Shown: in pieces, positions 13,090-57,648 of the stretch
Position numbering within the stretch: the first letter of the stretch is position 1
How the letters are laid out: every line of letters begins with the position of its first letter
NCBI GenBank assembly: GCA_003645645.1
Contig: QNBH01000002.1
Location: 1-57,650 of the forward strand
Source: Spirochaetota bacterium
Lineage (GTDB): Bacteria > Spirochaetota > Spirochaetia > SPDA01 > B32-G16
Reading direction: 5' to 3'
Length of the DNA stretch: 57,650 bases
Position numbers and translations under genes: made by a program
Notes under the pieces: generated by a model
Database searches by the model: none
What the model saw: only the letters and a program-made list of their open reading frames with translations
What the model was told of the DNA's origin: nothing

Positions 13090-13105
13090 TGGCATAAAAA
13101 TTGCT
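13090..13105 (+). promoter_or_regulatory. sigma54 (-24/-12) promoter of the ABC transporter operon
   Basis: TGGCATAAAAATTGCT with correct GG-N10-GC spacing, between the activator gene and the SBP gene. Confidence 0.85.
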
Positions 13106-13150
13106 TACTGCTAATTAAAACAACTACTTCAAGATTTAAGGAGGAAATCG

Positions 13151-14146
13151 ATGAAAAAGGGTTTAAAGGTTGTTATTTCGTTTTTTCTCATGCTTTTCAT
13201 TGCGGTGTCAGTATTTTCTGCAGGAAAGCAGGAGGCTGTCAAGCCAACAGGAGAGAGGTATAAGTTTTTTGTGGTCTCGCACGGAGGTCCTGCAGATCCA
13301 TTCTGGGGTGTAGTGATGAAGGGGGCGAAGGAGGCTGGAGAGATGTTCAATTGCGATGTTCAGTATCTGGGGCCGGAAAAATTTTCGATCCAGAAACTGG
13401 TGGACATGGTTGAAACAGCAGTTGCAAGCGATCCCGATGGGCTGGTGGTAACTATAACCGATGCGAAGGCGCTGGATCAGCCGCTGAAAGATGCTATCAA
13501 CAAGAAAGGGATTCCGGTTGTAGCCATCAATGTTCCCGATTATCGCCCCTTTGAGGAGCGTATTCCCTATCTTGCTTATGTTGGAGCGGACGACTACAAA
13601 GTAGGTATCGAAGGAGCACGAAGAATGCTTAAGGCCTTTGCCCCCGGTAAACCTGAAAGAGGGGTGGTTTCAATTCATGAGGTAGGTCATGCGGGGCTTG
13701 AGGCTCGTGCCAGAGGCATAACAGAAGTTTTTACAGAAAAGGGGATACCCGTGGAAAAACTTGCCACCTCTCCAAATGCCTCGGAGACCTATCAGGCTGT
13801 GGATGCATATCTCACAAAAAATCCGGATACGGATGCTATTTTCACACTGGGGCCGCTGGACACACATCCTGTATTGAGACTGCGTGAGGAGAAAGGGTTA
13901 CTGGATAAAACCAAACAGGGCGCAGTCGATCTTTCTCCAACAATCATCAAAGCCATAAGAGAGGAGAAACTCCTTTTCACGGTGGAGCAGCAGCAGTATT
14001 TGCAGGGCTATCTTCCTATCGGCTTGCTTGTACTCTATAATAAGTTCGGGCTCATTCCCCATGATGATATCTTAACAGGTCCTGCCATTGTGGATAAAGA
14101 CAATGTGGAAATAGTTGCAGAGATGGTTGAGAAAAATTATAGATAA
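13151..14146 (+). CDS. Sugar (possibly inositol) ABC transporter substrate-binding protein, CUT2 family
   Basis: Signal peptide; VSHGGPADPFW...QQQYLQGY periplasmic-binding type I motifs. Confidence 0.9.
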   Translation: MKKGLKVVISFFLMLFIAVSVFSAGKQEAVKPTGERYKFFVVSHGGPADPFWGVVMKGAKEAGEMFNCDVQYLGPEKFSIQKLVDMVETAVASDPDGLVVTITDAKALDQPLKDAINKKGIPVVAINVPDYRPFEERIPYLAYVGADDYKVGIEGARRMLKAFAPGKPERGVVSIHEVGHAGLEARARGITEVFTEKGIPVEKLATSPNASETYQAVDAYLTKNPDTDAIFTLGPLDTHPVLRLREEKGLLDKTKQGAVDLSPTIIKAIREEKLLFTVEQQQYLQGYLPIGLLVLYNKFGLIPHDDILTGPAIVDKDNVEIVAEMVEKNYR

Positions 14147-42752: not shown

Positions 42753-44318
42753 TCAAGGAAATCCCTCCACCGAACCGTCAAACCCGAACCGCTCTTTAAG
42801 GGCTTTTCGAAAAGCCGGGGGGTTTATTTTTAAAAGCCTGGCAGCCTGCTCCCTGTTTCCTCCCGATATCTTAAGAGCTTTCTCGTAATAATCCCTCTCT
42901 ATCTGGTATAGTAAAGCCTTAAGATCGACTCCACTTTGTGGAAGCTTGATCTCGATACCGGGAAGGGGCGGCTCCTTGTTAAAATATGACAGGATGGCAG
43001 GGGGAAGTATTTCCGGTCCGATAAGATCGGATTGACTAACGGCACAGACGGAGATAACGGTATTTTCAAGTTGTCTCACATTCCCCGGCCACGGATAGGA
43101 TAGGATATAATGCATTGCCTCTTCGGAGAACCTCTTGTTCTCTCCGTGTTTCTCGTTCCACTCTTTTAAAAATGTTGCCGACAGAAGAGGTATATCTTCT
43201 TGACGTTCCCTGAGCGGGGGAACTTCCAGGGTAACCTGGTTAAGTCTCTCGTATAAGTCTCTTCTGAACGTACCCTCATCGATCATCTGTTCAAGGTTTT
43301 TATTTGTTGCAGCTATGACCCGTATATCAACAGTTAGACCTGTATCTGCCCCCAGGGGAAGAAGGGTTTTCTCTTCAAGCACTCTAAGGAGTTTTGGCTG
43401 GACCTCCGGAGGCAAATCACCGACCTCATCGAGAAATACTATTCCCCGATCGGCTGCACGGAACTGACCCAACCTGCTCCTGCTTGCACCGGTAAAGGCT
43501 CCCTTTTCATGACCGAAGAGCTCGCTTTCTGCAAGCGTCGATGTTATGGAAGCGCAATTAACGGGAAGAAACGGTTTTTCCGCTCTATCACTGTGTTGAT
43601 GGATGAATTTTGCAACTAACTCTTTACCGGTTCCGGTCTCCCCCCTAATTAGTACAGTAATATCATAGGAGGCTATGCGTAAGGCTCTTTGAAGAGTTTC
43701 TCTGATGGGATCGGACTCTCCAATGATTTCTGCTCTTGTTGTGGTAGTAATCCATCGATCCCCGGAACTTTTATTACCCTGAACGCGGATATCATCTCTT
43801 CTTAATTTAATTTCCGGGAAAATCCCCTTATCAAGGTTAACCTCTCTTACCTTGTATGCTCCGCCTGTAAAGCGGGGTGGAATCCCCTGGAGTAATCTGG
43901 CGGGGATGTATCCGGACCTGGCCAGGAGAAACCACACCGTTTGCATCTGAGGAGTTCCCGAATCAAGAAGAATAGACAATTCCACTTTAAGATGTCTGAG
44001 CTGTCCGAGAATCTTATCGACAGCATCCTTTATTTTTGTATAAACTTCCTCGTAATCCACCGGAGAGAAAATATCCAAGTTTATAAAAGCGAATTTTGTT
44101 TTATTGGATTCTGTACCCTTATCCGTTCGTTCGCCCAGTACCTCCTCAACCATACGTGCCCGTTCAAAATACTCATAGCCTGAGCAGAAAAGATAGACCC
44201 TGTGGAAATACCTTTCATTTAAAAGGCAGAGAAGCGGCCCCCATTCCTCGCTCTCTTCGGGATAGGGGTCGCGGTTGCCTACAAAACTAAAGAGAACATC
44301 TATCTTATTAACCGCCAT
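42753..44318 (-). CDS. sigma54-dependent activator with an N-terminal CARF-like (RtcR-type) domain
   Basis: Rossmann-like N-terminus LFSFVGNRDPY...SPVDYEEVY...LLDSGTPQMQTVW; AAA+ motifs GETGTGKE, ESELFGHEKGAFTGA, FLDEVG and WPGNVRQL; C-terminal HTH. No receiver domain. Confidence 0.85.
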   Translation of the reverse strand: MAVNKIDVLFSFVGNRDPYPEESEEWGPLLCLLNERYFHRVYLFCSGYEYFERARMVEEVLGERTDKGTESNKTKFAFINLDIFSPVDYEEVYTKIKDAVDKILGQLRHLKVELSILLDSGTPQMQTVWFLLARSGYIPARLLQGIPPRFTGGAYKVREVNLDKGIFPEIKLRRDDIRVQGNKSSGDRWITTTTRAEIIGESDPIRETLQRALRIASYDITVLIRGETGTGKELVAKFIHQHSDRAEKPFLPVNCASITSTLAESELFGHEKGAFTGASRSRLGQFRAADRGIVFLDEVGDLPPEVQPKLLRVLEEKTLLPLGADTGLTVDIRVIAATNKNLEQMIDEGTFRRDLYERLNQVTLEVPPLRERQEDIPLLSATFLKEWNEKHGENKRFSEEAMHYILSYPWPGNVRQLENTVISVCAVSQSDLIGPEILPPAILSYFNKEPPLPGIEIKLPQSGVDLKALLYQIERDYYEKALKISGGNREQAARLLKINPPAFRKALKERFGFDGSVEGFP

Positions 44319-44322
44319 TTGC

Positions 44323-44424
44323 CTGCTCCCATATTTTAACCTTTATTGCACAAAGAAGGCTTGCCGCAAATGACGGCATGCCTCTTCAAAGTTAACTGCT
44401 CCCCTATTATAACCTTTATTGCAC
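44323..44424. repeat. 29-bp direct repeat pair flanking a 44-bp hairpin-containing spacer
   Basis: CTGCTCCC(A/C)TATT(T/A)TAACCTTTATTGCAC at 44323-44351 and 44396-44424; 27/29 identical. Confidence 0.92.
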
Positions 44425-44524
44425 GCTAGCAAGTATAATTGTTGTTTTTAAAAAATTGTAGATTCAAGATTACAAAAGTTAGCCTTCGGTAACTCTGGTT
44501 TCACATAAAGGCTAAGAAAGGCAG

Positions 44525-44565
44525 AAATTATGCTCAAATTTCTCCAAATTATGCAAATTTTCTCC
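44525..44565. repeat. Tandem ~21-bp repeat just upstream of the sigma54 promoter
   Basis: AAATTATGCTCAAATTTCTCC / AAATTATGCAAATTTTCTCC. Confidence 0.8.
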
Positions 44566-44576
44566 CGAAATTGAGA

Positions 44577-44592
44577 TGGCACAAAAATTGCT
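44577..44592 (+). promoter_or_regulatory. sigma54 (-24/-12) promoter oriented toward the cas operon
   Basis: TGGCACAAAAATTGCT matches the consensus TGGCAC-N5-TTGC(T/A). Confidence 0.85.
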
Positions 44593-44618
44593 ATACAATT
44601 AAAAGAGGAGTTGGGGTG

Positions 44619-44690
44619 ATGTATTCACTTCCTACTGAGGGTTTAATTAATTCCTTGGAAAAGATCGTTTACATAAATGCAGAGAGTTAA
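44619..44690 (+). CDS. Putative 23-aa small ORF (MYSLPTEGLINSLEKIVYINAES)
   Basis: GAGGAG RBS at 44605-44610, just after the predicted sigma54 start site. Confidence 0.35.
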   Translation: MYSLPTEGLINSLEKIVYINAES

Positions 44691-44784
44691 GATAACCAAA
44701 AGGTTCGTAAGACCTTTAAGGCGTTACACCCCGATTAGCTCTGTCAGGATTCTGTGGAATTTTTATATTTTTTGGAATATTTAG

Positions 44785-44813
44785 TTGCATTATCCGGAAT
44801 GGTGATTTATAAT
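44785..44813 (+). promoter_or_regulatory. sigma70 promoter upstream of cas6, overlapped by an inverted repeat
   Basis: TTGCAT-N17-TATAAT; TTATCCGGAA (44790-44799) and TTCCGGATAA (44837-44846). Confidence 0.65.
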
Positions 44814-44871
44814 AAAAAAGAGTCTTCATTGCGCAGTTCCGGATAAAATAACTACGGATAAGGATGCTGCT

Positions 44872-45786
44872 TTGAAACTTAACCATCAAACATTCGAGTG
44901 CATTTTAAAAAGTGAGCGCTCTATTTATTTCGACACCTTTCCCACCTTTATCTTCAGAAGCGTTATAGGAAAGGAATTGAGAAAAATAAGTTGCCTTTTT
45001 AAGAACAGGAATTGCAGTGAATGTTCTTTAAAAAACACCTGTGCATACTCTTTCATTTTCGAGACGCCGGTGGATAAGGAGAACAGGCTTCTCCATGGCA
45101 GAAACAGGGCTCCCCATCCCTTTACTCTCTACTCGCCTGTAAGTGCGAATGAAACGACAGACACCATAGCCCTGAATATCACGATGTTTGGTAAAAGTAT
45201 CGAGTACTTTCCCTATCTCTATTTCTCGTTAAAGCAGGCGGGAGAGAAGGGGATTTTCAGAGACAGAGTGCGGTTATCGGTGGATTCACTCTTATGTGGA
45301 GATAGCTCGATTCTCTTAGAAGAAGAGAAAATCGATACTTCTGTTCCTCCCCGGGTTTGGCGTATTGAAGGCAGTGAAGATAGGCAGGTAAAAAAGATCA
45401 ATATAAAGTTACTTTCTCCTCTGAGGCTTAAATACAGCGGGAAATATGGCACGGATTTTACCTGTTTCGATTTTCTAAATGCAGTAGAGCGAAGGGCAAG
45501 ACTCTTATGCGGGTTTTTCGGAGAAGACCAGCAGGATAGAAATAAGCCTGTTTTTTCAACCGGCAACAAGCAAATTACGGAGCGAGACCTTATATGGCAC
45601 GACTACAGATACTACTCTTCCCGCCAGAAATCGAGACTTAAAATGGGAGGTACAGTGGGTTCCTTTTCTCTGGAAGGAGAGTTTTCATCCGGGGAGCTTT
45701 CCCTGTTGAAAGGTGCGGAGCTTTTTCAGGTGGGAAAAAACTCTGTTTTCGGCTTCGGAAAGATATCGATTTACGAAGAGGATTAA
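44872..45786 (+). CDS. cas6: CRISPR pre-crRNA endoribonuclease Cas6
   Basis: C..C..C..C..C cluster with PHPF, SPLRL, MGGTVG and the C-terminal G-loop VGKNSVFGFG. Confidence 0.92.
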   Translation: MKLNHQTFECILKSERSIYFDTFPTFIFRSVIGKELRKISCLFKNRNCSECSLKNTCAYSFIFETPVDKENRLLHGRNRAPHPFTLYSPVSANETTDTIALNITMFGKSIEYFPYLYFSLKQAGEKGIFRDRVRLSVDSLLCGDSSILLEEEKIDTSVPPRVWRIEGSEDRQVKKINIKLLSPLRLKYSGKYGTDFTCFDFLNAVERRARLLCGFFGEDQQDRNKPVFSTGNKQITERDLIWHDYRYYSSRQKSRLKMGGTVGSFSLEGEFSSGELSLLKGAELFQVGKNSVFGFGKISIYEED

Positions 45787-45789
45787 GCT

Positions 45790-47994
45790 GTGCGGATTGC
45801 CTTAACTTCCCTTGGTCAATCATGGGCTATTATTCCGGAATTGACAGGTTTTTTATATCCTCGTGGGTACGACTTCTTCAAGAATCATCCCGATGCCGGC
45901 AAAATCAACTCATCTCGTGAGTTTCTGGGGGCAGGCAAGCTGGATGAGCTCTGGGTATTGGCAACAGAAGAGAGAAACTCTTTAAAAGCAGTGGATAAAA
46001 TACGGATGTGGAGCGAGCTTGTTTATCTCGATATTCCCATAAGGGTATGGATAACTTCAGGATTGTCGGATCTTTTCTCTCCGGAGGATTGTGCGCATAT
46101 GCGCGATGCCGTGTTGAGGTTGTGTATGCTGTGCAGAAAACTGGTGGGTAGAAATACGGAGATAATTTTCTCCCTGGCCGGTGGGAGAAAAACAATGAGT
46201 GCAGATATTCAATATTCAGCCTCTTTTTTCGGCCCCGGAGTATTGATCCATGTTGCAGACAGAAATATTCCGCCTTATTTCAAAGACCCCGACCCTTCTT
46301 TGCTTTTAATTCCACCGGGTCGAGAACTTGCCTCCTCCTTCATGCCGCTTATTATAGGTAAATATCCCGAGAACAGTCTCTCCGCACAGATCGATAGCAA
46401 GGATTTCACACTTCCCGAGTACACTCCACACAAAAGGCAGTACCGAATCCCCCTTGATAAGAATCTGGCTCAAAAGGTGGATGGGATACTCAATTCGGCA
46501 TCAAACTTCCTGTTCTACCAGATTTTTGATAAGACCTATGCGCAGAAGGAAAGTTCAAACTATTCCAGGTTGTTCGTTCTCCCGCCTGCGAGGATAAAAG
46601 ATTTAAGAAATATCCGGCTGGGAATTGAGCCGGAAAGAACAAAGGAGGAGTTGGTTCTGGTTAAGAAGCTTCCCAAAGCCGATCTTCATTGCCATCTCGG
46701 AGGAGTACTCACGGTAGAGGAGATTGTAGAGATAGCCCGAATACATGAAAATGAAGTTGGATGCTGGGAGAGAAAACACGAAGGCTTTCACAGGAAGAGA
46801 GAGGAGTGGATGCAGATTGCTTCGAAGGGAGATCCCACTGCCGTTTCGGAAAAAATAGGAGGGGAGAGGATAAGAGAATTGAGGGTTATGTTTAAAGAGA
46901 TCCCCCAGCCTTTTACCGTATGCGGGTTTCTCCTTTGCTTTATAGAGAATCCCCATCTCCTTGAGCAGGCCTTGTATGGGCGATGGATGAACGAGTCCGA
47001 TTTTACCGGTATTGGGATGAATGAGTACGAACGTTTGGGCGACCTGCAGGGGTCTGCATTGCTTCAGACAGAACCTGTTATCAGGGCGGTGGTGAGAAAA
47101 ACCGTAGAAAAGTGCATAGAGGATAATGTTACATACCTGGAATTACGCTGTTCACCTCAGAATTATACAAGGGGCGGACTTAAAATAGAGAAGGTTTTCG
47201 GAATAATAGATGATGAGCTTAAGAAAGCTTCCCACCGGATAGAGAACGGTATAATCCTAATAACAAGCAGGCACAGAAAAATGGACGAAATCTTCTCTAC
47301 TATAGAGTTAATAGATCATCTAGTTGAAGAAAACAGGGCGGGAAGGATCCTTGGGGTGGATCTGGCGGGAGATGAAACCTCATTGGCGCCTGCAAACCTT
47401 AGAGAGCACTTTCTTAGATTTATGGACAGGTGTATGCATATAACAATTCACGCCGGAGAGAACCAGGTTGCCGGGAATATCTGGGAGGCGGTGTATCACC
47501 TGAGTGCGGAGAGAATCGGGCACGGTCTTACCCTTTCGTATAAACCCGAACTAATGAAAAAGTTTCTCGACAGAGGCATCGGTATCGAGATGTGTCCGTC
47601 GAGCAACAGACAGATTGTGGGGTATACAGACTTCTGCCAGGAAAAAGTCGATAAAGCTATTTCTTCCGGCATAAAAGCAGAAGCACAATCCTCATCAATT
47701 TCGGAGAAGAGGATTCCCCATACCTACCCCTTAAAGGAGTTTCTCGATTATGGATTGAAGGTTTCGGTTAACACAGACAACATGGGTATCTCCCGTACAA
47801 GCCTTTCGAAAGAGCTGCTTCAGGCAGCCCGATTAACTCCCAGGGGATTGTCCGTAATGGAGATACTCCAGCTTATTAAGAACGCCTATTCTTCTGCATT
47901 TACAGATCACGATACGAGGAAAAAGCTAATTCTCGATTCCGAGAGGAGAATAATCGAGCTATTTCAGAGTGAGGAGGTTTTACCAGGTGGATGA
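45790..47994 (+). CDS. cad1: CARF-domain adenosine deaminase effector (Cad1/CAAD-like)
   Basis: CARF motifs LTSLGQSW and SLAGGRKTMS; deaminase motifs LPKADLHCHLGG, YLELR, GVDLAGDE, TIHAGE, RIGHG, EMCPSSN and VNTDN. Confidence 0.9.
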   Translation: MRIALTSLGQSWAIIPELTGFLYPRGYDFFKNHPDAGKINSSREFLGAGKLDELWVLATEERNSLKAVDKIRMWSELVYLDIPIRVWITSGLSDLFSPEDCAHMRDAVLRLCMLCRKLVGRNTEIIFSLAGGRKTMSADIQYSASFFGPGVLIHVADRNIPPYFKDPDPSLLLIPPGRELASSFMPLIIGKYPENSLSAQIDSKDFTLPEYTPHKRQYRIPLDKNLAQKVDGILNSASNFLFYQIFDKTYAQKESSNYSRLFVLPPARIKDLRNIRLGIEPERTKEELVLVKKLPKADLHCHLGGVLTVEEIVEIARIHENEVGCWERKHEGFHRKREEWMQIASKGDPTAVSEKIGGERIRELRVMFKEIPQPFTVCGFLLCFIENPHLLEQALYGRWMNESDFTGIGMNEYERLGDLQGSALLQTEPVIRAVVRKTVEKCIEDNVTYLELRCSPQNYTRGGLKIEKVFGIIDDELKKASHRIENGIILITSRHRKMDEIFSTIELIDHLVEENRAGRILGVDLAGDETSLAPANLREHFLRFMDRCMHITIHAGENQVAGNIWEAVYHLSAERIGHGLTLSYKPELMKKFLDRGIGIEMCPSSNRQIVGYTDFCQEKVDKAISSGIKAEAQSSSISEKRIPHTYPLKEFLDYGLKVSVNTDNMGISRTSLSKELLQAARLTPRGLSVMEILQLIKNAYSSAFTDHDTRKKLILDSERRIIELFQSEEVLPGG

Positions 47995-48628
47995 AATGAT
48001 CCTTTGTGTACCACGAAAAATTATTCCGAAAGAGTTGAGGAATGATAGAGTCTCAAGCCCCTTGCAGTGGGAGGTGCTTGCCACTGCACTTACATCATCT
48101 TCCCTGATGTTTCTTCCAAGAAGAGAAGTAGAGGGGAACCCTTCTTTAAAGCAGATTATACCTTACGTGCTTATTAGAAACTCTGTCGGATCCCTGCTTT
48201 GTTATGAGCGGGCAGGTTCAGAGGAGAGGCTTCACGGCCAGTTGTCGCTGGGTATCGGGGGGCATGTAAGCATGGAAGATATAGAGGGCCGGCCCAATAC
48301 GAAAGGGGAATTAAACTTGCTTACAGCAGGAGAGAGCTTCCTTGAGCAGGTAGTGTGTAAGGCAATCGAACGGGAACTGGAGGAGGAAGCGGGATTAGAT
48401 GACGGAGCCAGGGCTCGATTCATGGGTGTTATAAACGAGGAGTTGACCCCTGTCGGTAGAGTGCATTTCGGACTTGTTTTTGAGTACCTGCTTAATCGGG
48501 GTGATAGTGCGGTTACCGGAGAAGAGCTTGCCCACTCATCCTGGATGGATATGGAGGAGATTTATGCACGCAGGGATGAGTTTGAATTGTGGTCACAACT
48601 CGCCCTTGAACTGGTAGAAAGAGATTAG
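47987..48628 (+). CDS. NUDIX-family hydrolase
   Basis: KQIIPY, EERLHGQLSLGIGGHV and RELEEEAG motifs; overlaps the deaminase stop codon. Confidence 0.88.
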   Translation: MDEMILCVPRKIIPKELRNDRVSSPLQWEVLATALTSSSLMFLPRREVEGNPSLKQIIPYVLIRNSVGSLLCYERAGSEERLHGQLSLGIGGHVSMEDIEGRPNTKGELNLLTAGESFLEQVVCKAIERELEEEAGLDDGARARFMGVINEELTPVGRVHFGLVFEYLLNRGDSAVTGEELAHSSWMDMEEIYARRDEFELWSQLALELVERD

Positions 48629-48646: not shown

Positions 48647-51022
48647 ATGGATAGAGGTTTAGACTCAGAGTTTTATGAAGTTGTTTTGGCAGGATTATTA
48701 CACGATATAGGTAAGTTTGCTCAGAGGACAGGTCTTGATAAATATAAAAAGACAGAAATGGAAGGCCAGCTATGCAAGAAAGCAGAAAAAGGAGATTATT
48801 ATACACACCAACATGTACTTTACACATTGGGAGTATTGGAATCATTTAAAGGGATATTTCCCGATGGTATAGATATAATTAATGTAATAAATCTTGCCTC
48901 AAGCCATCACAATCCCTCAAAGCATCTCGATAAAATTATTTCCCATGCAGACATAATTTCTTCCGGACATGACAGAAGATCTGAAAAGGAGCTTGAAAAT
49001 GAAAAAAACCAGAAATATTACGAAAAACCTCTAATAAGTGTTTTATGGAGCGTCAGTTTGCCCGGGAAAGTAAACGGCAATGAGGAAAATTGTAAATTAC
49101 CTTTAAAAAAATTATCCCCGGAGACGATCTTTCCACGAAGCGATATTTCTATTTCAAAAAAAGATTACCTTGAATTATGGGAAGATTTTGAAAACGATTT
49201 ATATGAGTTGAGAAATCTGGATATACACCACTTTCTTAGTGCATTAAATACGATACTTGAACAATACACATTGTGCATACCTTCAACCACAGTGGATGAT
49301 CCGGATATTAGTTTATACGATCATCTTATTACAACTGCTGCCTTCTCTGCGGTACTATACAAATATCATAAACAAACGGAATCTCTTGACTCTGATAAGT
49401 CCATTTCAGATACCACCAAAGAGAAATTTCTCTTTGTTATAGGTGATGTCAGCGGCATACAAAGATACATATTTAATCTAAAAACTACAAAACATAACGC
49501 AAAAATGCTTAGGGCCAAATCTTTTGAGATTCAATATATTGCCCAATCGGTTGCAAATACACTTCTCGAAGAATGCGGATTACCTATCTTTTGTGCTTTG
49601 ATGAATGCTGGTGGCAGATTTTTGCTTGTTCTTCCGAATACAGAAAAAACGGCCAAAATACTTAAAGATTTTCGCAGAGCCTGTGAATCATTTTTCCTGG
49701 AAAGGTATTTCGGAGAACTTTCTTTAAATATTTCAAAGGGTGTTTCTGTTGCGGAAAAAGATTTAATTGGTGAAAAAGCTAAAGAATTATTTAGGAAATT
49801 ATCTTTTGATTCTGCTGAGGCAAAGCAGAAAAAACTACAGACTGCTCTTTCATCGGTTGAAAATCATATCATAGGTAAAGAATACAAGAAAATACAGGAG
49901 TATAATTTGGTTTGTAAAAATTGTGATTGCAGAGCTGTAGTTTATGATAATGAGGAAAAGTTATGTCCGCCATGCAAGGTTCTTGTAACTATAGGTACAA
50001 AGCTTCCAAAAGTGAGTTATATAGGTTTCAAACCTCTGGCCTGGAAGAGGGGTAAATTAGATTTTAGCTTAAAAGATGTTCTGCTCAGAGAGGAAGAATC
50101 AGATTTTCCCCCAGGCATAATAATCAATACTGTAAATAGTTATACCCCTGGAAAACCTCTATATAGTATACCCTATCATATTCCGGTTAACAGTGAGTCC
50201 GGAGATCCGTTAACATTCGAAAAATTAGCTGAAAAGAATGAAGGTGCAAAAAAAATTGCAATGTTTAAGGCCGACCTGGATAATCTTGGTGCAATTTTTT
50301 CTTTTGGATTGAAAAAAAGACTTTCTATTTCACGTTATGTTTCTTTAAGCAGGAGCATCAATTATTTTTTCTCTACATGGTTAAACCACGAAATAAAAAA
50401 TTACAAAAAAAATAATAATCCGTCCTTCTCAGATATATACACCGTATTTTCCGGAGGTGACGATCTATGTGTGATAGGTCCATGGGAAAGAGTTATCGAT
50501 TTTGCTTTGCATGTGAGGAAGAAATTTGCAGAGTTCACAGCAGGTAATACTTCACTGACTATTTCAGGCGGTATAGTTTTAGCGGGAAGTAGCTTACCTG
50601 TAAGCTCTATCGCCCATAGTGCAGAAGAAGCACTCGATGCTTCCAAGGAATTGGACGGTAAGAATGCACTTACTATTTTTAATACGACTATGAAATGGGA
50701 TGAGGCTGAAGAGATGGTTAAAGCAGGAGAGAAAATAACTCGACTGTTGAAAGAAAACGGAAAAAAAGAAGAGAAGATCGGACACGGAATTGTTTACAGA
50801 TTGATAGAATACAGTGATCGGGCTTTAAAAGTTAAGAACGGTAATATAAAAAGCAAGAATGTGCTATGGCGAAGTCATTTTTTCTATGATGTTGCTCGCA
50901 ATTTAAAAAACTTGGAAAAGGACGATATGGAGTGGTTTATCAGCCTTGCAGATGAACATTCCATAAAATATTTAAGGGTACCGGCGAGTTATGCACTCTA
51001 CCGGTTAAGAAAAAAAACTTAA
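48647..51022 (+). CDS. cas10: Type III-A Cas10/Csm1
   Basis: HD motif LLHDIGK, DISLYDH, GDVSGIQ, KADLDNLG and Palm2 SGGDDL. Confidence 0.97.
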   Translation: MDRGLDSEFYEVVLAGLLHDIGKFAQRTGLDKYKKTEMEGQLCKKAEKGDYYTHQHVLYTLGVLESFKGIFPDGIDIINVINLASSHHNPSKHLDKIISHADIISSGHDRRSEKELENEKNQKYYEKPLISVLWSVSLPGKVNGNEENCKLPLKKLSPETIFPRSDISISKKDYLELWEDFENDLYELRNLDIHHFLSALNTILEQYTLCIPSTTVDDPDISLYDHLITTAAFSAVLYKYHKQTESLDSDKSISDTTKEKFLFVIGDVSGIQRYIFNLKTTKHNAKMLRAKSFEIQYIAQSVANTLLEECGLPIFCALMNAGGRFLLVLPNTEKTAKILKDFRRACESFFLERYFGELSLNISKGVSVAEKDLIGEKAKELFRKLSFDSAEAKQKKLQTALSSVENHIIGKEYKKIQEYNLVCKNCDCRAVVYDNEEKLCPPCKVLVTIGTKLPKVSYIGFKPLAWKRGKLDFSLKDVLLREEESDFPPGIIINTVNSYTPGKPLYSIPYHIPVNSESGDPLTFEKLAEKNEGAKKIAMFKADLDNLGAIFSFGLKKRLSISRYVSLSRSINYFFSTWLNHEIKNYKKNNNPSFSDIYTVFSGGDDLCVIGPWERVIDFALHVRKKFAEFTAGNTSLTISGGIVLAGSSLPVSSIAHSAEEALDASKELDGKNALTIFNTTMKWDEAEEMVKAGEKITRLLKENGKKEEKIGHGIVYRLIEYSDRALKVKNGNIKSKNVLWRSHFFYDVARNLKNLEKDDMEWFISLADEHSIKYLRVPASYALYRLRKKT

Positions 51023-51033
51023 GGAGGAATGAT

Positions 51034-51462
51034 ATGAGCATTGTTTTTTACGAACAAGGATCGGACTTGGTTAGATCGGAGTTATTCGATAAGGATGCAA
51101 AGCAATGGGCCGAGAGGTTGGTTAAACCAATAGGAGAGAGAAAAGTAAAGGGAGTAAGCAGGCATCAATTCAGAAGACTATTCGAAGAGGTAAAACGGTT
51201 ACAGAAGATGCTTATCAATGAAAAAAGAAAGTGGGCTTATGTTAAGCCCTTTGTGAAAATGCTTAAGCCCAAAACAGCATACACGGTTGCCCGGGCAAAA
51301 GATAAAGAAAAAAATGCCGGTGTGTATTACGATGCATTAAAAGACCTTTTTAATGAAGGTATAGATGGAGTAAATACAGAGCGAGACTTTAGAGCTTTCT
51401 GTGATTTCCTCGAAGCAGTTTACGGATACTACTACGAATTAGGCGGTGTAAATACAAAATAA
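51034..51462 (+). CDS. csm2: Csm2 small subunit
   Basis: SRHQFRRLF, AYTVAR and F.DFLEAVYGY motifs; position after cas10. Confidence 0.93.
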   Translation: MSIVFYEQGSDLVRSELFDKDAKQWAERLVKPIGERKVKGVSRHQFRRLFEEVKRLQKMLINEKRKWAYVKPFVKMLKPKTAYTVARAKDKEKNAGVYYDALKDLFNEGIDGVNTERDFRAFCDFLEAVYGYYYELGGVNTK

Positions 51463-51491
51463 TGATAATCAATTATTAAGGAGGATTAAAA

Positions 51492-52184
51492 ATGGCTTAC
51501 AACAAACACTACATTAAAAGTATAACCGGAAAAATTAAAGTATTAACAGGACTGCACATTGGTGCAGGCAGTGATGTTATCGAAATAGGCGGAATGGACA
51601 ATCCCATAATCAAGAATCCCATAACAGGTGAGCCCTATATTCCAGGTTCATCTTTAAAGGGAAAGATGAGAAGCCTTATGGAATGGTACTTCAACAAAGT
51701 AAAAGTTAACGGCGGAGAACCGTGTAAATGCGGAGAACCTGATTGTGAAATCTGCAGGGTTTTCGGTTGTGCCATACAAAATACAGAGAAGTCAGTTGAA
51801 AAATCAAAAAAGCGAGGTCCTACAAGACTTATAGTGAGGGATGCATTTCTCACTGAGGAAACTAAAGAGAAATTTGCCGGTAAGAATCTTGTTGAAGATA
51901 AAAGTGAAAACTCAATAAACAGACTCACTGCTGCTGCCACCCCTCGCCATCTGGAAAGGGTAGTACCTGGAACTGAATTCGACTTTTCATTATCCTACAG
52001 GTTTTTTGACATGGAAGATGGTTTTGAGATAGATGAGAGATATTTCAGGGATGTAGTTCTAAAAGCATTGGCCATTCTGGAACATGATTTTTTAGGAGGA
52101 GGAGGAAGCAGGGGCAGTGGTAAAATTATGTTTGTAGACTTAAGAGATGAAAAGGAGAAGGAAGTAATATTGCCGGAGGTGTAA
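51492..52184 (+). CDS. csm3: Csm3 RAMP
   Basis: TGLHIG, IGGMDNP (catalytic Asp), PYIPGSSLKGKMRS and LGGGGSRGSG motifs. Confidence 0.96.
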   Translation: MAYNKHYIKSITGKIKVLTGLHIGAGSDVIEIGGMDNPIIKNPITGEPYIPGSSLKGKMRSLMEWYFNKVKVNGGEPCKCGEPDCEICRVFGCAIQNTEKSVEKSKKRGPTRLIVRDAFLTEETKEKFAGKNLVEDKSENSINRLTAAATPRHLERVVPGTEFDFSLSYRFFDMEDGFEIDERYFRDVVLKALAILEHDFLGGGGSRGSGKIMFVDLRDEKEKEVILPEV

Positions 52185-52189
52185 GATTT

Positions 52190-53134
52190 ATGAAAACCTT
52201 TAAAATACAGGTTGAGGTTAAATCGCCATTACTTACTCCTCTCCATGGCGATACTCTTTTCGGCCATTTGTGCTGGGGAATAGTCAGGCATGAGGGTGAA
52301 GATGCTCTACAGGAGTTTTTCTTAAAGTACAAAGATGTTAATACCATACCTATTATCTTATCCAATGCTTTCCCGGAAGATACTATTCCATACCCACAGT
52401 TAAGTCCTTCGATGTTAAAAGAGACTGACAATATAGAGGAATATAAATTAAGAAAAAAAGAAAAAAAATATTCCTGCATTCCTGCAGAGTTGATTCTTAA
52501 TAACAATCAAAAAATATCAAGAGAGACGATTCACAATTCGGTCAGAGAAAAAACGATCGAGTCATATAGGGCATGCTCCAGATTACGAAATAAAATAAAT
52601 AGGTTAAGCAATACCACATTTGAAGACTCTGTATATCCGGTTGAGGAAATCTGGTATTTCGAACGATATAAAAACGGCAAGTCCTTACCAGCTCTTTTAG
52701 ACATATATGCACTATCCAATGAGAATGAAAATCGAATCGAAGAATTACTAGAGTGGGCAATAGAGACAGGTTATGGAGCAGACAAGTCTCTGGGGTATGG
52801 AATACTTAATATAAAAGGAATCGAAGAAGTTTTCTTTCCCGAGACTGGTAACAGATGTATGGCTTTAGGTCATTTTGTACCAGAGAAAAACGAGAATCTT
52901 AAAAACTTAAAAGCAGATGTATTTACAAAATACGGTAAGTTGAGTGGGGATAAATTATTATCGTCGAATCCATTTAAAAAACCTATTGTCATGTACCGTG
53001 AAGGAGCAACGTTTGATTTTTCTGGTCAACAATTTGTAGGAACCCTTTTGAAAGATGTACATGCAGACAATAGAATCAGACATCATGCTTTTGCTCCTTT
53101 AATACGATTCACAGAGGAGGAGAAGACTTCATGA
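52190..53134 (+). CDS. csm4: Csm4 RAMP
   Basis: HGDTLFGHL, LSNAFP, GYGADKSLGYG and YREGATF motifs. Confidence 0.93.
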   Translation: MKTFKIQVEVKSPLLTPLHGDTLFGHLCWGIVRHEGEDALQEFFLKYKDVNTIPIILSNAFPEDTIPYPQLSPSMLKETDNIEEYKLRKKEKKYSCIPAELILNNNQKISRETIHNSVREKTIESYRACSRLRNKINRLSNTTFEDSVYPVEEIWYFERYKNGKSLPALLDIYALSNENENRIEELLEWAIETGYGADKSLGYGILNIKGIEEVFFPETGNRCMALGHFVPEKNENLKNLKADVFTKYGKLSGDKLLSSNPFKKPIVMYREGATFDFSGQQFVGTLLKDVHADNRIRHHAFAPLIRFTEEEKTS

Positions 53135-54285
53135 ACAGCATAAAACATAGATACATATTAAAAATTACACCTTTGACTGCAGTACATATAGGAACTGGAT
53201 TGGAACTAACTCCTTTTAACTATGTCATTAAGTTAAATAAAAATAGGACTCCGACTTTATATAGATTTATTCCGGGACAGGTAATTTCATTTTTAAGTTC
53301 TGAACAAAAAAAAGAACTTGAGAAATTATCAGAAAGCGGAAATATTCTTCCTCTAAGAAAGTTTCTTTATAATAACTTCAAAGCTGGTATGGAAATATAT
53401 TCATTACCTGTTTCAAAAGATATAGCAAAATCTTACGTTAATAATCTTCAATCAGAGAGAAATCAATTAATTATTAACGAAATGTACCGTAAAGGGGATA
53501 TTTACTCTCCTGTAATTCCCGGTAGTTCGCTGAAGGGAGCCATCAGAACGGCGGTATTGAATAAAAAAGTACGAGAAAAAACAAGCAGGGGATATGCTGT
53601 GCCTAAAATAAATAAAGAAATTCAAAAGCAGGCTTTGAATTATAAAGATGCAAAAGACGATCCTTTCAGAGCTGTCAGCATCTCGGATTGTGTTATTAAG
53701 AAAAGAAGTAAGAATCAAATTGTATCCAATCTTTTTATATATAAGAATACCAGGGGAGAAAACTCGAGAATAGAGATGCAGATGACCTATGAGCTTATAA
53801 GGGGGAAATTGTTTAACGGCAGTGCAATTGGGGGAGTTGAATTACTCATTGATAATCCTTTAATTGAGTTTCCACCTGTTGGAAATTGGGAAGGTATAAA
53901 AGTTAAACTCAATATTAAAGAGATTGCCGATTCCTGCAACAAGTTTTATAAGGATGCATTTAAAGAAGAGTTTAACAAACACTACGGTTCTTGTAACGAG
54001 TTTCTGCTAAAGAATAATCTCGAAATGCTTGAAAGGGAAATAGATGACATAGGTTCTGATTCTAATAAAATTTCATTTTTACTTAGAGTTGGAAGATTCA
54101 GTCAGGTGGAATGTGTAACCCTGGAAGAGCCATACAGATCACCATTCAACAAAAAAGGATATGGTAAAACAAGAACGCTTGCAAGGTACAATGATCTGGA
54201 GATGCCCTTAGGATGGGTTAGGGTAGATGTAGAGAAAGCATACATAAATGGAAAGCCAACTGAAAGGGCGGTATATCATAACTAG
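53131..54285 (+). CDS. csm5: Csm5 RAMP
   Basis: LTAVHIGTG, IPGSSLKGAIRTA, DPFR, LRVGR and PLGWV motifs. Confidence 0.93.
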   Translation: MNSIKHRYILKITPLTAVHIGTGLELTPFNYVIKLNKNRTPTLYRFIPGQVISFLSSEQKKELEKLSESGNILPLRKFLYNNFKAGMEIYSLPVSKDIAKSYVNNLQSERNQLIINEMYRKGDIYSPVIPGSSLKGAIRTAVLNKKVREKTSRGYAVPKINKEIQKQALNYKDAKDDPFRAVSISDCVIKKRSKNQIVSNLFIYKNTRGENSRIEMQMTYELIRGKLFNGSAIGGVELLIDNPLIEFPPVGNWEGIKVKLNIKEIADSCNKFYKDAFKEEFNKHYGSCNEFLLKNNLEMLEREIDDIGSDSNKISFLLRVGRFSQVECVTLEEPYRSPFNKKGYGKTRTLARYNDLEMPLGWVRVDVEKAYINGKPTERAVYHN

Positions 54286-54296
54286 GTAAAACTGAA

Positions 54297-54701
54297 ATGA
54301 AACCTTCATTTTTCATATTGATGAATCACGAACTAACGCCTCACCAGGAAAAGGAAGTAAAGGAAGTGATGAAATGCAGGTGTATCATCACTCCGCCAAA
54401 AAAGATAAAAGATATCTGGATAAAAATAACTCCTTACGGAATGATCGACACAGAAGCATTAGAGGAGATTACGGATTATCTATCAATAAAAGCCAGGGAA
54501 GGAGATTACGTTCTAGTCCAGGGAGAGTTCGGAGCCACCTTCTATATCGTAGATTACTGTTTCTGGAATGGGTTGGTTCCTGTTTATGCAACTTCCGAGA
54601 GGCGGTACAACGAAAGACATACAGAAGAGGGAAGCATAGAAAGACATCATATATTCAGCCATGTGCAGTTCAGAAAATATGTTAGATGGAGGAATCCATG
54701 A
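54297..54701 (+). CDS. csx20: Csx20-like protein, putative ring nuclease
   Basis: NHELT..Q, GDYVLVQGEFGATF, PVYATSER and FSHVQFRKY motifs. Confidence 0.78.
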   Translation: MKPSFFILMNHELTPHQEKEVKEVMKCRCIITPPKKIKDIWIKITPYGMIDTEALEEITDYLSIKAREGDYVLVQGEFGATFYIVDYCFWNGLVPVYATSERRYNERHTEEGSIERHHIFSHVQFRKYVRWRNP

Positions 54702-55990
54702 GTAACGTATTTTTATCCTTTCTGGGAACAAGCGATTATAAAACGTGTAATTACCATTACGGAAACAAGATAAGAAAAACTGTAGTATTCGCCCAGGAAG
54801 CTATTCTTAATTTTTTTTGCATGCACTTTAAAGAAAATGACAAGATACTAATTTTCCTTACAGAAAAAGCAAAGGAGAAAAATTGGGAGAAAAACAGTAA
54901 AGGTATTGGACTTAAAGAAACCATTGAAAACTTAGAACTTCCTGCACAATTGATACCGGTATCAATTCCAGAAGGCAACTCGGAAGAAGAAATATGGAAA
55001 ATTTTCGAAATTGTTTATGAGCACCTTGAACCGGAGGATGAGGTGATCCTCGATATAACCCACTCATTCAGATCGATCCCCATGTTAACAATGGTTCTTC
55101 TCAACTACACGCGATTCCTTAAAGATATAAAAATAAAAGGTATCTATTACGGAGCCTACGAAGCACGTATTGGTGAAGATGCGCCTGTTTTCGACCTTAC
55201 GAGTTTCGAACGGTTGCAACGTTGGAGTATTGCAGCAGAAAACTTTGTAAATCATGGGATAACGGATGCCATTGCAAATCTTGTTTATCCTCAGGTGAAT
55301 CCATTGTTAAAAGAAAGCATGGGCTCGAATGAAAGTGCGAAGGCGGAAAGTTATTTTGCTAAACTTTTAAACAGAGTCGGAAGTTATTTCAGTACGGTGA
55401 GGGGGAAAAGAATCTACATGGGTAGAGAAATAAATCGCCTTAAGCAGAATCTCAATCAAGTAAAAGAGGGCGAACTGATAATCAAACCCTTAAGACCATT
55501 GTTGGATAAAGTCCGTCAAAAGATAGAAGCTTTCAAGCCTGAGTCCATAGACAATATGATAGAAGCAGTAAAATGGTGTATAAATCATGATCTTATTCAG
55601 CAGGGGATAACAATGCTGCAGGAGACAATTATCTCTTATATCCTCGAAGAGAACGGGCTTGAGTGGTATGCGAAGGATAGAGCAACATCTGAGAAGAAAA
55701 AGAAAGTTAAGAGGTTAAGAGAAGATTTATCCCAGGCGATCCATCTATATGGCAAAAACGGCGATAGAAACGATTGGGATTATGAGTTTAAAATTCACAG
55801 CAAAATAATCAAGAAGGTAATAGAAAGTGAATCTTTTCAACGACTGTTTAAAACCAATGAAAAATTAAGGGATCTGCGTAACGATATAAATCACGCCGGT
55901 TTGATAGATGATTTTGAGCCGGGCAATTTTAAAGATAAACTTAAAAGCTCATTTGAAGAGATAAAGAAAATTATATTGTATGGAGGATAA
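54698..55990 (+). CDS. csx1: Csx1/TM1812-type CARF-HEPN ribonuclease
   Basis: FLSFLGT..Y, LDITHSFRS, YYGAYE and the HEPN motif RNDINH; GGAGG RBS. Confidence 0.9.
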   Translation: MSNVFLSFLGTSDYKTCNYHYGNKIRKTVVFAQEAILNFFCMHFKENDKILIFLTEKAKEKNWEKNSKGIGLKETIENLELPAQLIPVSIPEGNSEEEIWKIFEIVYEHLEPEDEVILDITHSFRSIPMLTMVLLNYTRFLKDIKIKGIYYGAYEARIGEDAPVFDLTSFERLQRWSIAAENFVNHGITDAIANLVYPQVNPLLKESMGSNESAKAESYFAKLLNRVGSYFSTVRGKRIYMGREINRLKQNLNQVKEGELIIKPLRPLLDKVRQKIEAFKPESIDNMIEAVKWCINHDLIQQGITMLQETIISYILEENGLEWYAKDRATSEKKKKVKRLREDLSQAIHLYGKNGDRNDWDYEFKIHSKIIKKVIESESFQRLFKTNEKLRDLRNDINHAGLIDDFEPGNFKDKLKSSFEEIKKIILYGG

Positions 55991-55992
55991 AT

Positions 55993-57078
55993 GTGTCCAC
56001 CATATATATTGTTTCCGATTACGGAAAACTTATTAAGAAAAATAAAACACTTCAACTTACAAGCAACGATGGAACCACTACAATCATTTTCCCATATAAA
56101 ACCGATCAACTGGTTGTGATGGGAAGTATCGAGATAACAGGGCCTGCACTCAAACTTCTTATGAGATACAACATCGATACCGTTTTCCTTGGAAAAAACG
56201 GAAAATACAACGGTAAAATAGCTTTCCAGGAGAGCAAGAACGTATTCTTAAGACAGAAACAGTTTAAGATGCTTGAGGATAGGGATTTTGTACTCGATTT
56301 CTCAAAATCGGTTGTCAGGGCAAAGCTTAAAAATCAGCTTACCTTCATGCAGAGAATCCACCGCAGAAGGGAAAATGCAAAGCAGTTGCATAAAACGATA
56401 TTAAACATGAAGCTTAATCTCGAAAGGGTTGAGGAAGCCGGAAGTGCGGAACAGTTGAGAGGGATTGAGGGGCTCGGAGCGAGATACTTCTTCTCTCTTT
56501 TTCGGGAAAATATAATACAGGACTGGGCTGTTTTCAAGGGAAGGAGTATGCATCCTCCCGAAGATAACGTTAATGCGGTGTTGAGTTTTCTCTACACCCT
56601 CCTGTTTTTTCGTGTGGATGGAGCCATCGAATCTGAAGGGCTGGATAGTTTTGTAGGATATTTTCATTCCCTGGATTACGGGAAAAGAACCCTGTCCTTT
56701 GATTTAATGGAGGAGTTTCGCACTCCCCTTGCCGATACGCTTTGTTGTTCTCTTTTCAATCTGGCAATTCTGGAAGAAAATGACTTTGAAGAGGTCGTTT
56801 TTTCTGTCGATGACATCGATTACCCTCTTGAGGATGATGGTGAGGAGGAGAAAGGAGAAGGCTCTGTACTATATCAAGAGAAAAAAGGGGTGTTGCTTAC
56901 AAAGAAGGGGTTGAGAAAAGCACTTAAACAATTCGAGAAAAAACTGGAGGATCAATATTATTATCAACCTTTAAAGAGACAGATAAGTTATAAGAAACTT
57001 ATAAGAGAACAGGTAAAACATTTTAAGAGGGTATTAAACGGAGAAGAGAAAATGTACAAGCCAATGGTAATAAAATAA
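55993..57078 (+). CDS. cas1: CRISPR integrase Cas1
   Basis: LRGIEG...YF, PPEDNVNAVLSFLY, GYFH and DLMEEFR motifs. Confidence 0.97.
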   Translation: MSTIYIVSDYGKLIKKNKTLQLTSNDGTTTIIFPYKTDQLVVMGSIEITGPALKLLMRYNIDTVFLGKNGKYNGKIAFQESKNVFLRQKQFKMLEDRDFVLDFSKSVVRAKLKNQLTFMQRIHRRRENAKQLHKTILNMKLNLERVEEAGSAEQLRGIEGLGARYFFSLFRENIIQDWAVFKGRSMHPPEDNVNAVLSFLYTLLFFRVDGAIESEGLDSFVGYFHSLDYGKRTLSFDLMEEFRTPLADTLCCSLFNLAILEENDFEEVVFSVDDIDYPLEDDGEEEKGEGSVLYQEKKGVLLTKKGLRKALKQFEKKLEDQYYYQPLKRQISYKKLIREQVKHFKRVLNGEEKMYKPMVIK

Positions 57079-57091
57079 TAGAAAGACATAT

Positions 57092-57367
57092 ATGATTTAT
57101 ATGTTCTGTTATGATATATCTGATGATAAAAGACTTCGCAGAACGGCTAAGGTTCTGGAGCAGTTTGGGATCAGGGTTCAGAAATCATTTTTCCAGTGTG
57201 AGATGGAAAAGCAGAGGATGCAGGAGCTAAAAGATAAAATAAGGAAAGTAATTAACGAAAGAAAAGATTATTTCTTTATTTATCCGTTATGTGAAGATTG
57301 CAGCAGAAAGGCTCTGACCGATGGCACGGGAGAACTTATCAGGTTGGAGGCTTTTGAGATCTTATGA
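57092..57367 (+). CDS. cas2: Cas2
   Basis: YDISDDKRL and RVQKSFF motifs. Confidence 0.95.
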   Translation: MIYMFCYDISDDKRLRRTAKVLEQFGIRVQKSFFQCEMEKQRMQELKDKIRKVINERKDYFFIYPLCEDCSRKALTDGTGELIRLEAFEIL

Positions 57368-57648
57368 AGCACTGGCTTGTTATCTATGATATCAGGAATG
57401 AGAAACGATTACACCGTGTGGCAAAAACAATGGAACGGTATGGGACAAGAGTACAGAAATCAGTATTTGAGATAGAAGCCGGAAATAAAACCATTAAAAG
57501 ACTCAGAAATCAAGTTAATGATATAATAGAAAGTGAAGATTTTGTAGTATATTTCGACATTTGCGAGAGGGACTGGCAGAAAAGAATGAAGTACGGTCCG
57601 AAAAAGTTTAAGGGGAAACCCTGTGATAAAGAATATCTTATAATTTAA
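57364..57648 (+). CDS. cas2: Second Cas2
   Basis: YDIRNEKRL and RVQKSVFE motifs. Confidence 0.93.
   Translation: MKHWLVIYDIRNEKRLHRVAKTMERYGTRVQKSVFEIEAGNKTIKRLRNQVNDIIESEDFVVYFDICERDWQKRMKYGPKKFKGKPCDKEYLII

Follow-up and report, generated by a model that had tools for sequence, protein, structure and literature searches.

The window analysed here, a stretch of 57,650 nucleotides from a Spirochaetota bacterium (contig QNBH01000002.1), carries a type III-A CRISPR operon that begins with cas6 and runs up to the window end. Divergent from it lies a gene for a sigma54 enhancer-binding protein (EBP) of the RtcR type, in which a CARF sensor domain precedes an AAA+ module and a helix-turn-helix (HTH) domain. 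The 553-bp spacer between both transcription units contains a sigma54-type box and a palindrome, which are predicted to place the operon under the control of the EBP. The features are listed below by position and strand, with the basis of each assignment in brackets (aa, amino acids).

42753–44318, minus strand: EBP, an RtcR-like CARF-AAA+-HTH protein of 521 aa (single open reading frame, ORF; Pfam and NCBIfam)
42792–42905, minus strand: Fis-type HTH (aa 472–509), presumed reader of the palindrome, with a predicted DNA target (HTH_8, 30.2 bits)
42987–43727, minus strand: sigma54-interaction AAA+ module and lid (aa 198–444) with GETGTGKE, GAFTGA, and FLDEV (Pfam and sequence)
43809–44318, minus strand: CARF sensor domain (aa 1–170) with the motifs FVGNRDPY, DYEE, DSGTPQMQ, and LLQGIPPRF (Pfam RtcR, AF2, Foldseek, and sequence profile)
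44469–44502, no strand: predicted upstream activating sequence, two palindrome copies 20 bp apart (motif search and by eye)
44525–44565, no strand: 20-nt A/T-rich tandem repeat in two copies between palindrome and promoter (repeat search score 61)
44577–44592, plus strand: sigma54 −24/−12 box TGGCAC-AAAAA-TTGCT, with a transcription start predicted at ~44602–44604 (exact consensus search)
44872–45786, plus strand: cas6 (Pfam PF10040)
45790–47994, plus strand: Cad1-type CARF-adenosine deaminase (Cas_NE0113 and A_deaminase)
47969–48628, plus strand: NUDIX hydrolase (Pfam)
48647–51022, plus strand: cas10/csm1 with HD at aa 19 and GGDD at aa 603 (Pfam and motifs)
51034–54285, plus strand: csm2, csm3, csm4, and csm5 (Pfam and NCBIfam)
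54297–55990, plus strand: csx20 and the gene for a TM1812/DxTHG-family CARF protein (NCBIfam)
55993–57648, plus strand: cas1 and two tandem cas2 genes, the second of which continues past the window end (family search)

The regulator and the type III-A operon

Pfam searches assigned aa 21–161 of the EBP to RtcR (PF06956; 39.8 bits at a cut-off of 23.1) and aa 198–364 to Sigma54_activat (PF00158; 226 bits), and AAA_lid_14 and HTH_8 (aa 472–509) were matched as well. GAFTGA (aa 273) and the Walker A and B motifs (GETGTGKE, and FLDEV at aa 295) are intact, and both SFVGNRDPY and DSGTPQMQ can be read in the sequence. With a GAFTGA-containing AAA+ domain, Walker motifs, and a C-terminal HTH, the protein qualifies as a sigma54 enhancer-binding protein, in line with the initial annotation, which had described a divergent activator with these traits. 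The host genome (3.98 Mb, 380 contigs) encodes rpoN, and the EBP is its sole gene with an RtcR domain.

A CARF fold had been proposed for the N-terminus and named as a point to be checked. The AF2 model of this domain (pLDDT 81.7) displays a six-stranded Rossmann fold with strands at aa 6–12, 40–45, 75–80, 112–117, 140–146, and 156–160. Foldseek comparison with the PDB returned as top match the Csm6 of E. italicus (EiCsm6) bound to an analogue of cyclic hexaadenylate (cA6) (6tug; E-value 7e-8, TMq 0.55–0.60). Csm6' of S. thermophilus with cA6 (8pe3) came next, followed by Cam1, TtCsm6, Can2, the CARF domain of Cad1, and Csa3, the structure of Csa3 with cyclic tetraadenylate (cA4; 6wxq) holding rank 39. 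Among the matches listed, all with an E-value ≤ 1e-3 are CARF proteins. The sequence profile of an alignment of 15 homologous EBP N-termini (alignment A1) also matched 6tug (E-value 4e-6) and 8pcw. The Pfam RtcR match, the predicted model, and the Foldseek result agree in identifying the N-terminus as a CARF fold. The CARF classification of Makarova et al. from 2020 reportedly grouped RtcR with the cA6-type CARF domains of Csm6 and may also include RtcR-like proteins linked to type III loci.

Conserved motifs in alignment A1 are FVGNRDPY, DYEE, LLDPGTPQMQTxWFLL, and LLQGIPPRFAGGxYK. By alignment, EiCsm6 residues N10, T114, and Q116 correspond to N15, T122, and Q124 of the EBP, which are kept across the clade. 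In the same comparison, E90 is the counterpart of the base-contacting E80 and S46 (mostly T across the clade) that of T39, and the ring-nuclease residue T11 is replaced by R16 (R, H, or K in the clade). Alanine at N10, T114, or Q116 was described to lower or abolish the cA6-dependent activity of EiCsm6 (PMC7101355). E. coli RtcR carries T, T, and V at these three positions and thereby departs from the EBP at N15 and Q124.

The operon has the order cas6-cad1-nudix-cas10-csm2-5-csx20-TM1812-cas1-cas2, and every intergenic gap is ≤ 29 nt. A cas10 with HD and GGDD motifs, csm2 to csm5, cas6, and a CARF-adenosine deaminase assign the locus to type III-A (Csm) with Cad1. The tandem cas2 pair lies at 57092–57648, and the same doubling was seen in a related genome (G035, locus L202). 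A repeat search found no CRISPR array in the window.

Promoter elements upstream of cas6 and of related operons

The box TGGCACAAAAATTGCT matches TGGCAC-N5-TTGCT exactly, as the initial annotation had stated for 44577–44592, and it faces cas6 (start at 44872) from a distance of 295 nt. Allowing for one mismatch, two sigma54 boxes were found in the window compared to 1.34 expected, and a simple calculation gave a prior of ~2e-4 for an exact, correctly oriented box within a 553-bp spacer beside an EBP gene. Taken alone, the cas6 box is unremarkable against chance. It becomes credible because of a palindrome upstream of it, the promoters of orthologous operons, and a presence/absence control, and not because of the box itself.

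The palindrome, GTAAC-N4-GTTAC, was first seen in the loci L203 and L204 of two related genomes, 77–99 bp before their sigma54 boxes. In the window, GTAACTCTGGTTTC at 44489–44502 agrees with it at 9 of 10 positions, 88 bp before the box, and ATTACAAAAGTTAG at 44469–44482 was recognized by eye as a degenerate copy (7 of 10). As a test set outside the discovery set, 80 non-identical EBP loci were searched over the 400 bp before the EBP start with ≤ 1 mismatch. This yielded 32 sites in 30.6 kb of EBP-upstream sequence (1.05 per kb) and 36 in 705 kb elsewhere (0.051 per kb), an enrichment of ~20-fold, with counts somewhat inflated by near-duplicate loci. At least one site was present in 21 of the 74 EBP loci with ≥ 150 bp of upstream sequence. 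Palindromes are often paired 20–23 bp apart, and the sigma54 boxes alongside face the EBP gene, the divergent gene, or both. One genome (G033) carries the identical 14-mer GTAACTTTCGTTCC both at its EBP locus (L097) and before cas6 (L204).

In the genome of the window, the cas6 promoter is the only place where box and palindrome are found together: only one of 51 sigma54-like boxes, that of cas6, has a palindrome 30–300 bp upstream. Perfect palindromes on contigs C33, C82, C117, and C278 were taken as chance occurrences because no sigma54 box is near them. The initial annotation had regarded the cas operon as the obvious target, given that rtcA and rtcB are missing from the window. The window does lack rtcB, but a single rtcB is present on another contig (C113); the 780 bp upstream of it contain neither a sigma54 box nor a palindrome (≤ 2 mismatches each). 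The host encodes rpoN, and a −24/−12 box with an upstream palindrome as predicted binding site lies at cas6, as expected of a sigma54 target.

Related type III loci were searched for sigma54 boxes with ≤ 1 mismatch, the GG and GC positions being fixed. Exact boxes were found in G009 (L203; cas6-cad1-nudix-cas10), where TGGCACGCCTTTTGCT lies 109 nt before cas6, and in G033 (L204; cas6-cad1-nudix), where TGGCACACTTATTGCA lies 89 nt before cas6; a box with one mismatch precedes cas6 of G088 (L207) by 208 nt. All three genomes encode the EBP on another contig. In each of them, a palindrome is located 77–122 bp before the box of the cas6-led operon, that of L207 being perfect and 122 bp away.

For the presence/absence control, we considered cas6-led type III loci with visible upstream sequence and excluded those with less than ~390 bp visible (G025, G150, and G251; in G025 and G150 the contig ends short of the promoter). 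A sigma54 box before cas6 was present in four of five EBP-positive genomes (that of the window, G009, G033, and G088; not G035) and in none of seven EBP-negative genomes (G079, G335, G133, G222, G359, G304, and G329); the genomes are related and not independent, any P-value would be optimistic, and the metagenome-assembled genomes are incomplete. Conservation of the −24/−12 box, which had been set as a check, was thus observed at orthologous operons. Moreover, of eight type III loci in EBP-positive genomes, five have cad1, which was not detected in any of 17 loci from EBP-negative genomes. These data suggest that GTAAC-N4-GTTAC is a new, family-specific element and the predicted binding site of the EBP, and that the cas operon is a likely target, as initially supposed.

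Further features of the spacer were recorded. The A/T-rich tandem repeat may represent an IHF-type or bending region. Exactly at the predicted sigma54 start lies a strong ribosome-binding site, GAGGAG (44604–44693 region), and the 295-nt leader before cas6 holds a 24-codon reading frame with its ATG at 44619. Closer to the EBP gene, a 29-nt direct repeat occurs at 44323–44351 and 44396–44424 (27 of 29 positions identical, 73 bp apart). Its first copy, which contains the GGGAG of the EBP gene, stops 5 nt short of the EBP start codon, and the sequence between the copies comprises a terminator-like hairpin (44362–44378, minus strand) and a short upstream reading frame. This region may be a duplicated leader or attenuator of the EBP gene. 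We dropped the 29-nt repeat as an enhancer because it was not found in the other promoter regions inspected and because it overlaps the ribosome-binding region of the EBP gene; it was also rejected as a CRISPR array.

Similar elements were seen elsewhere. At 12195–12695 of locus L202 (G035, contig C48), two TTCGGTAA half-sites are 22 bp apart, and one of them shares the 13-mer CTTCGGTAACTCT with the window site. In the rtcBA region of E. coli K-12 (L206, 8081–8268), GGTAA and GGTTAC half-sites were noted by eye ~60–110 bp before a TGGCACGACGGTTGCA box; these half-sites resemble the palindrome of the EBP family at the sequence level. The window itself holds a putative second sigma54 system at 10112–14146, in which a 454-aa ORF (11509–12873), preceded by a 466-aa ORF, matches the AAA+ part of the EBP with 42% identity (tblastn). 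A box nearly identical to that of cas6, TGGCATAAAAATTGCT at 13090, lies 61 nt before the next ORF.

Relatives of the regulator and their genomic neighbours

Of 61 genomes from the same order or class, 20 gave a match to the CARF domain, 16 of these matches being strong (48–58% identity). Pfam analysis of the fetched loci revealed a divergently transcribed gene for a WYL-domain protein beside the EBP in five of them (L106, L107, L109, L112, and L118), PEGA-domain proteins as neighbours in two (L113 and L097), and assorted or unmatched genes in the others. A metagenome scan with alignment A1 added 80 EBP loci, nine with WYL partners and five with upstream PEGA partners (tblastn). These metagenome counts are lower bounds because many of the flanks are short. 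Neither WYL nor PEGA partner homologues were detected by tblastn in the genome of the window. An earlier scan of genome contigs with the full-length protein (L004–L083) retrieved mostly generic AAA+ EBPs without CARF, cas, or rtcB matches and was dropped.

The pairing of CARF-EBP and WYL protein is the commonest module of the clade and is uncharacterised (L106, L107, L109, L112, L118, L122, L124–L130, and L133). The WYL partner has an N-terminal WYL domain and a variable C-terminal part with weak transglutaminase-like or EF-hand matches, and it often lies behind a sigma54 box of its own.

Type III loci with an adjacent EBP showed several architectures. In L107, a sigma54 box is located ~170–190 nt before cas10. 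The metagenome loci L157 and L158 comprise EBP, APE2256-CARF, cas6, cas10, csm2-5, and TM1812, with a box 51 nt before the EBP gene and ~270 nt before cas10. The loci L174, L176, and L181 consist of EBP, an oppositely oriented cad1, APE2256-CARF, cas6, one RAMP gene, and cas10 of the Cmr2 type; here, one box lies ~180–195 nt before cas6, and a second, divergent box is found on the other side of the EBP. A more divergent CARF-EBP is oriented away from a Cmr locus in G219 (L213) and was related to alignment A1 by hhalign (96.6% probability, E-value 5.6e-10). This type III-B locus (3100–11800 of L213, contig C1) encodes a 500-aa EBP with a remote CARF N-terminus (GHADL / GTPAMA). It has exact sigma54 boxes ahead of the EBP gene and immediately ahead of a 240-aa ORF, after which come cas1-cas2.

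In a quick maximum-likelihood tree of 69 EBPs (midpoint root; E. coli RtcR and L213 on long branches), the EBP of the window and the G009 protein form a pair (SH-aLRT 89). Adjacency to type III genes, mapped as a label, required four changes on this tree, of which at least two are forced by well-supported branches. More distant CARF-EBP lineages are likewise located in type III loci, namely the two metagenome locus types, which form a separate clade, and the more divergent third form.

Distribution against Cas10 was assessed in a sample of 401 genomes of the class. The EBP clade was present in 47, a strong Cas10 palm2 match in 28, and both in eight, whereby the truncated cas10 of G040 was left out of the count and genome completeness ranged from 79 to 100%. 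Eight of the 47 EBP-positive and 20 of the 354 EBP-negative genomes gave such a Cas10 match, which is therefore ~3 times more frequent with the EBP. In a sample of the phylum, the clade was present in 4 of 401 genomes.

Proposed circuit and alternative explanations

In the circuit that we propose, the HTH of the EBP would bind GTAAC-N4-GTTAC ~90–110 bp upstream of the start site, and the CARF domain would restrain the AAA+ ring until a ligand binds. Such auto-inhibition is suggested by analogy with E. coli RtcR, whose deltaCARF form was reported to be constitutive (PMC9650030). The ATPase would then open the sigma54-RNA polymerase complex at TGGCAC-N5-TTGCT, and the whole 12.8-kb type III-A/Cad1 operon would be transcribed, cas1-cas2 included. 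The ligand would be an oligoadenylate from the Cas10 of the locus itself, i.e., either a ring of the cA6 type or the 2',3'-cyclic-phosphate product of its cleavage, and the result would be an infection-triggered positive loop over basal expression. In that reading, the operon including cas1-cas2 is switched on by a second messenger, and therefore interference and spacer acquisition would both be amplified.

We consider the regulatory link from EBP, palindrome, and sigma54 box to the type III operon very likely because of the architecture, the position, the family-specific cis element, and the presence/absence control; the EBP would act on type III operons both in cis and in trans. DNA binding by the EBP, sigma54 dependence in vivo, and the nature of the ligand are deduced from these data. 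Feedback by cyclic oligoadenylates (cOA) is plausible, and the full circuit with its Cas10-made ligand has a prospect approaching, though not reaching, an even one. Slightly more tentative is the view that this wiring, from a Cas10-made cA6-type ligand over a CARF-AAA+ EBP to sigma54 transcription of the whole operon, arose on separate occasions in no fewer than two CARF-EBP lineages, and probably in three or four. A Cas10-made ligand is favoured by the pocket resembling that of cA6-binding Csm6, the GGDD-containing Cas10, the recurrence of CARF-EBPs inside type III loci, and the presence of Cad1, a kind of effector that in its characterised form prefers cA6 (~30 nM, vs. ~700 nM for cA4; PMC11645235).

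Several results count against this circuit, some at the promoter and some at the ligand. Exact sigma54 boxes occur six times in the 3.98-Mb genome, which is near the ~3 expected from base composition, and the window palindrome has one mismatch, a quality shared by 101 sites in the genome, i.e., approximately the chance number. The 51 sigma54-like boxes of the genome are likewise close to the count expected by chance. A sigma70-like TTGAGA-17-TACAAT (10 of 12 positions; 44571–44599) overlaps the sigma54 box. Finally, no sigma54 box was found in the 500 bp visible before cas6 of the EBP-positive G035 (L202). Box and one-mismatch palindrome could be fortuitous in an A/T-rich spacer, with sigma70-type promoters reading the operon and the EBP regulating something else or nothing; the length of the 295-nt leader would also fit. 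We regard such a lack of any functional link as improbable, as both elements are seen again, with order and spacing unchanged, at the orthologous operons of three further EBP-positive genomes but not in any of the seven EBP-negative ones. The enrichment of the palindrome at EBP loci, the single RtcR-domain gene, and the single box-plus-palindrome site of the genome argue in the same direction. Sigma70-like matches in the cas6 upstream region are at chance frequency (3 vs. 4.0 expected), and the overlapping one could serve basal expression or compete with sigma54.

Regarding the ligand, cas10 adjoins the EBP in only 1 of 20 fetched genome loci (L107, G040), type III genes were found in the fetched flanks of only 5 of 80 metagenome EBP loci, with two architectures (tblastn), and most EBP homologues neighbour WYL or PEGA genes instead of cas genes. 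The linkage to type III loci that the initial annotation had asked for does recur in several lineages and also in trans, but physical adjacency is confined to this minority. Feedback by Cas10-made oligoadenylates is further weakened because 39 of the 47 EBP-positive genomes gave no Cas10 palm2 match at E ≤ 1e-12; in genomes without a detected Cas10, the pocket residues are conserved as well. With the same promoter logic, the CARF domain might thus read a Cas10-independent signal of infection or damage, such as pieces of RNA with a 2',3'-cyclic-phosphate end, as proposed for RtcR, or another nucleotide, and the type III operon would be one of several defence or stress modules under a general alarm regulator without cOA feedback. 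RtcR is the closest family of the EBP in both Pfam and NCBIfam, with colinear similarity, the usual WYL and PEGA neighbours stand behind divergent sigma54 boxes, and RtcR homologues heading CoCoNuT and restriction-modification (R-M) superoperons were predicted to sense cyclic-phosphate RNA (PMC11090510). However, the pocket motifs GN-DP and GTPQM match cA6-binding Csm6 and not E. coli RtcR, which did not respond to oligoadenylates in vitro (PMC9650030); the top structural matches are cA6-bound Csm6 proteins, type III loci contain CARF-EBPs of several lineages, and Cas10 is more frequent in EBP-positive genomes. A Cas10-independent signal is a serious possibility, which we put below an even chance and nearly level with a Cas10-made ligand. 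Csm6 was described to produce adenylate-rich RNA with a 2',3'-cyclic phosphate end from cA6 (PMC7101355), and such RNA could be the one chemistry that reconciles a Csm6-like pocket with carriers in which no Cas10 was detected. It is also conceivable that the EBP drives the promoter while its CARF domain is governed mainly by a protein partner, i.e., a Cas protein here and the WYL protein in relatives, similar to RtcA and RtcB, which bind the CARF domain of RtcR and are needed for its activation (PMC9650030). The recurrent divergent WYL gene would suit such a partner; however, the genome of the window yielded no WYL or PEGA homologue by tblastn, and the conserved polar residues of the pocket favour a nucleotide, which renders control by a partner very unlikely.

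Compared to known systems, the EBP is closest to RtcR of E. coli and Salmonella, with which it shares the order CARF-AAA+(GAFTGA)-HTH_8, the divergent arrangement with a sigma54 promoter, a Pfam RtcR match above the cut-off, and 32% identity over 459 colinear residues (E. coli RtcR). In contrast to RtcR, it scores below the equivalog cut-off of its best NCBIfam model (RtcR, NF038308; aa 21–499, 333.7 vs. 650 bits) and neighbours a type III-A operon from cas6 to cas2 instead of rtcBA, the rtcB of the genome lying elsewhere without these elements. RtcR homologues of CoCoNuT, R-M, and Druantia superoperons likewise place a CARF EBP at the head of a defence locus, with infection as predicted inducer (PMC11090510; PMC4012209). 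Those loci are type IV or type I restriction systems and, as far as these sources describe them, have no defined cis elements, whereas the type III locus of the window has its own cOA synthase and a mapped palindrome and box. Csa3, a cA4-binding fusion of CARF and winged HTH (PMC8844856), also couples a CARF sensor to a DNA-binding output that regulates cas genes; it is described as a simple factor of the sigma70/archaeal type without ATPase, whereas the EBP has an AAA+ module between CARF and Fis-type HTH and would act on sigma54 polymerase. The closest solved CARF domains by profile and fold, those of E. italicus Csm6 and S. thermophilus Csm6', have GN(T/R)DP(W/Y), GTPQM, and the cA6-sensing N10, T114, and Q116 in common with the EBP. 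Csm6 is, however, an HEPN RNase effector and not an AAA+-HTH protein, and EiCsm6 has T11 where the EBP has R16. CalpL-CalpT-CalpS also turns type III signalling into a transcriptional response by cA4-triggered release of a sigma factor, but a SAVED-Lon protease cuts the anti-sigma factor of an ECF-type sigma there, and CARF, EBP, and sigma54 do not figure in its description (PMC11229360).

In the literature, Makarova et al. (2014) recognized the RtcR domain as a divergent CARF and described the RtcR-like family as not typically near cas genes, with R-M-linked relatives (PMC4012209). Bell et al. (2024) reported RtcR homologues at the head of CoCoNuT superoperons and proposed feedback by cyclic-phosphate RNA (PMC11090510). 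The systematic survey of Hoikkala et al. (2024) set type III regulators aside for future study (PMC11229360), and term searches of the 2025 CRISPR classification gave no mention of sigma, NtrC, or RtcR (PMC12669027). Our literature searches did not turn up a publication in which an RtcR-like EBP is connected with type III loci; the 2020 classification of Makarova et al. and the supplementary neighbourhood tables of PMC4012209 and PMC11090510 lay outside these searches and may bear on this point. What is new here, at the level of sequence, is the recruitment of an RtcR-type CARF EBP to type III CRISPR, together with a predicted enhancer and promoter.

Transcriptional control of bacterial type III CRISPR loci is poorly charted. 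The locus described here offers a testable circuit with a sensor domain, an ATPase motor, and a defined DNA site and promoter, which recurs across genomes. The GN-DP/GTPQM pocket is intermediate between Csm6 and RtcR and therefore provides a handle on the evolution of ligand specificity in RtcR. If the ligand is a damaged RNA, an RtcR-type alarm would govern type III CRISPR in addition to restriction systems and RNA repair. If it is a cOA, the EBP would be the first case in which CRISPR second-messenger signalling is read out through sigma54, and it would lead directly from infection to induced adaptation.

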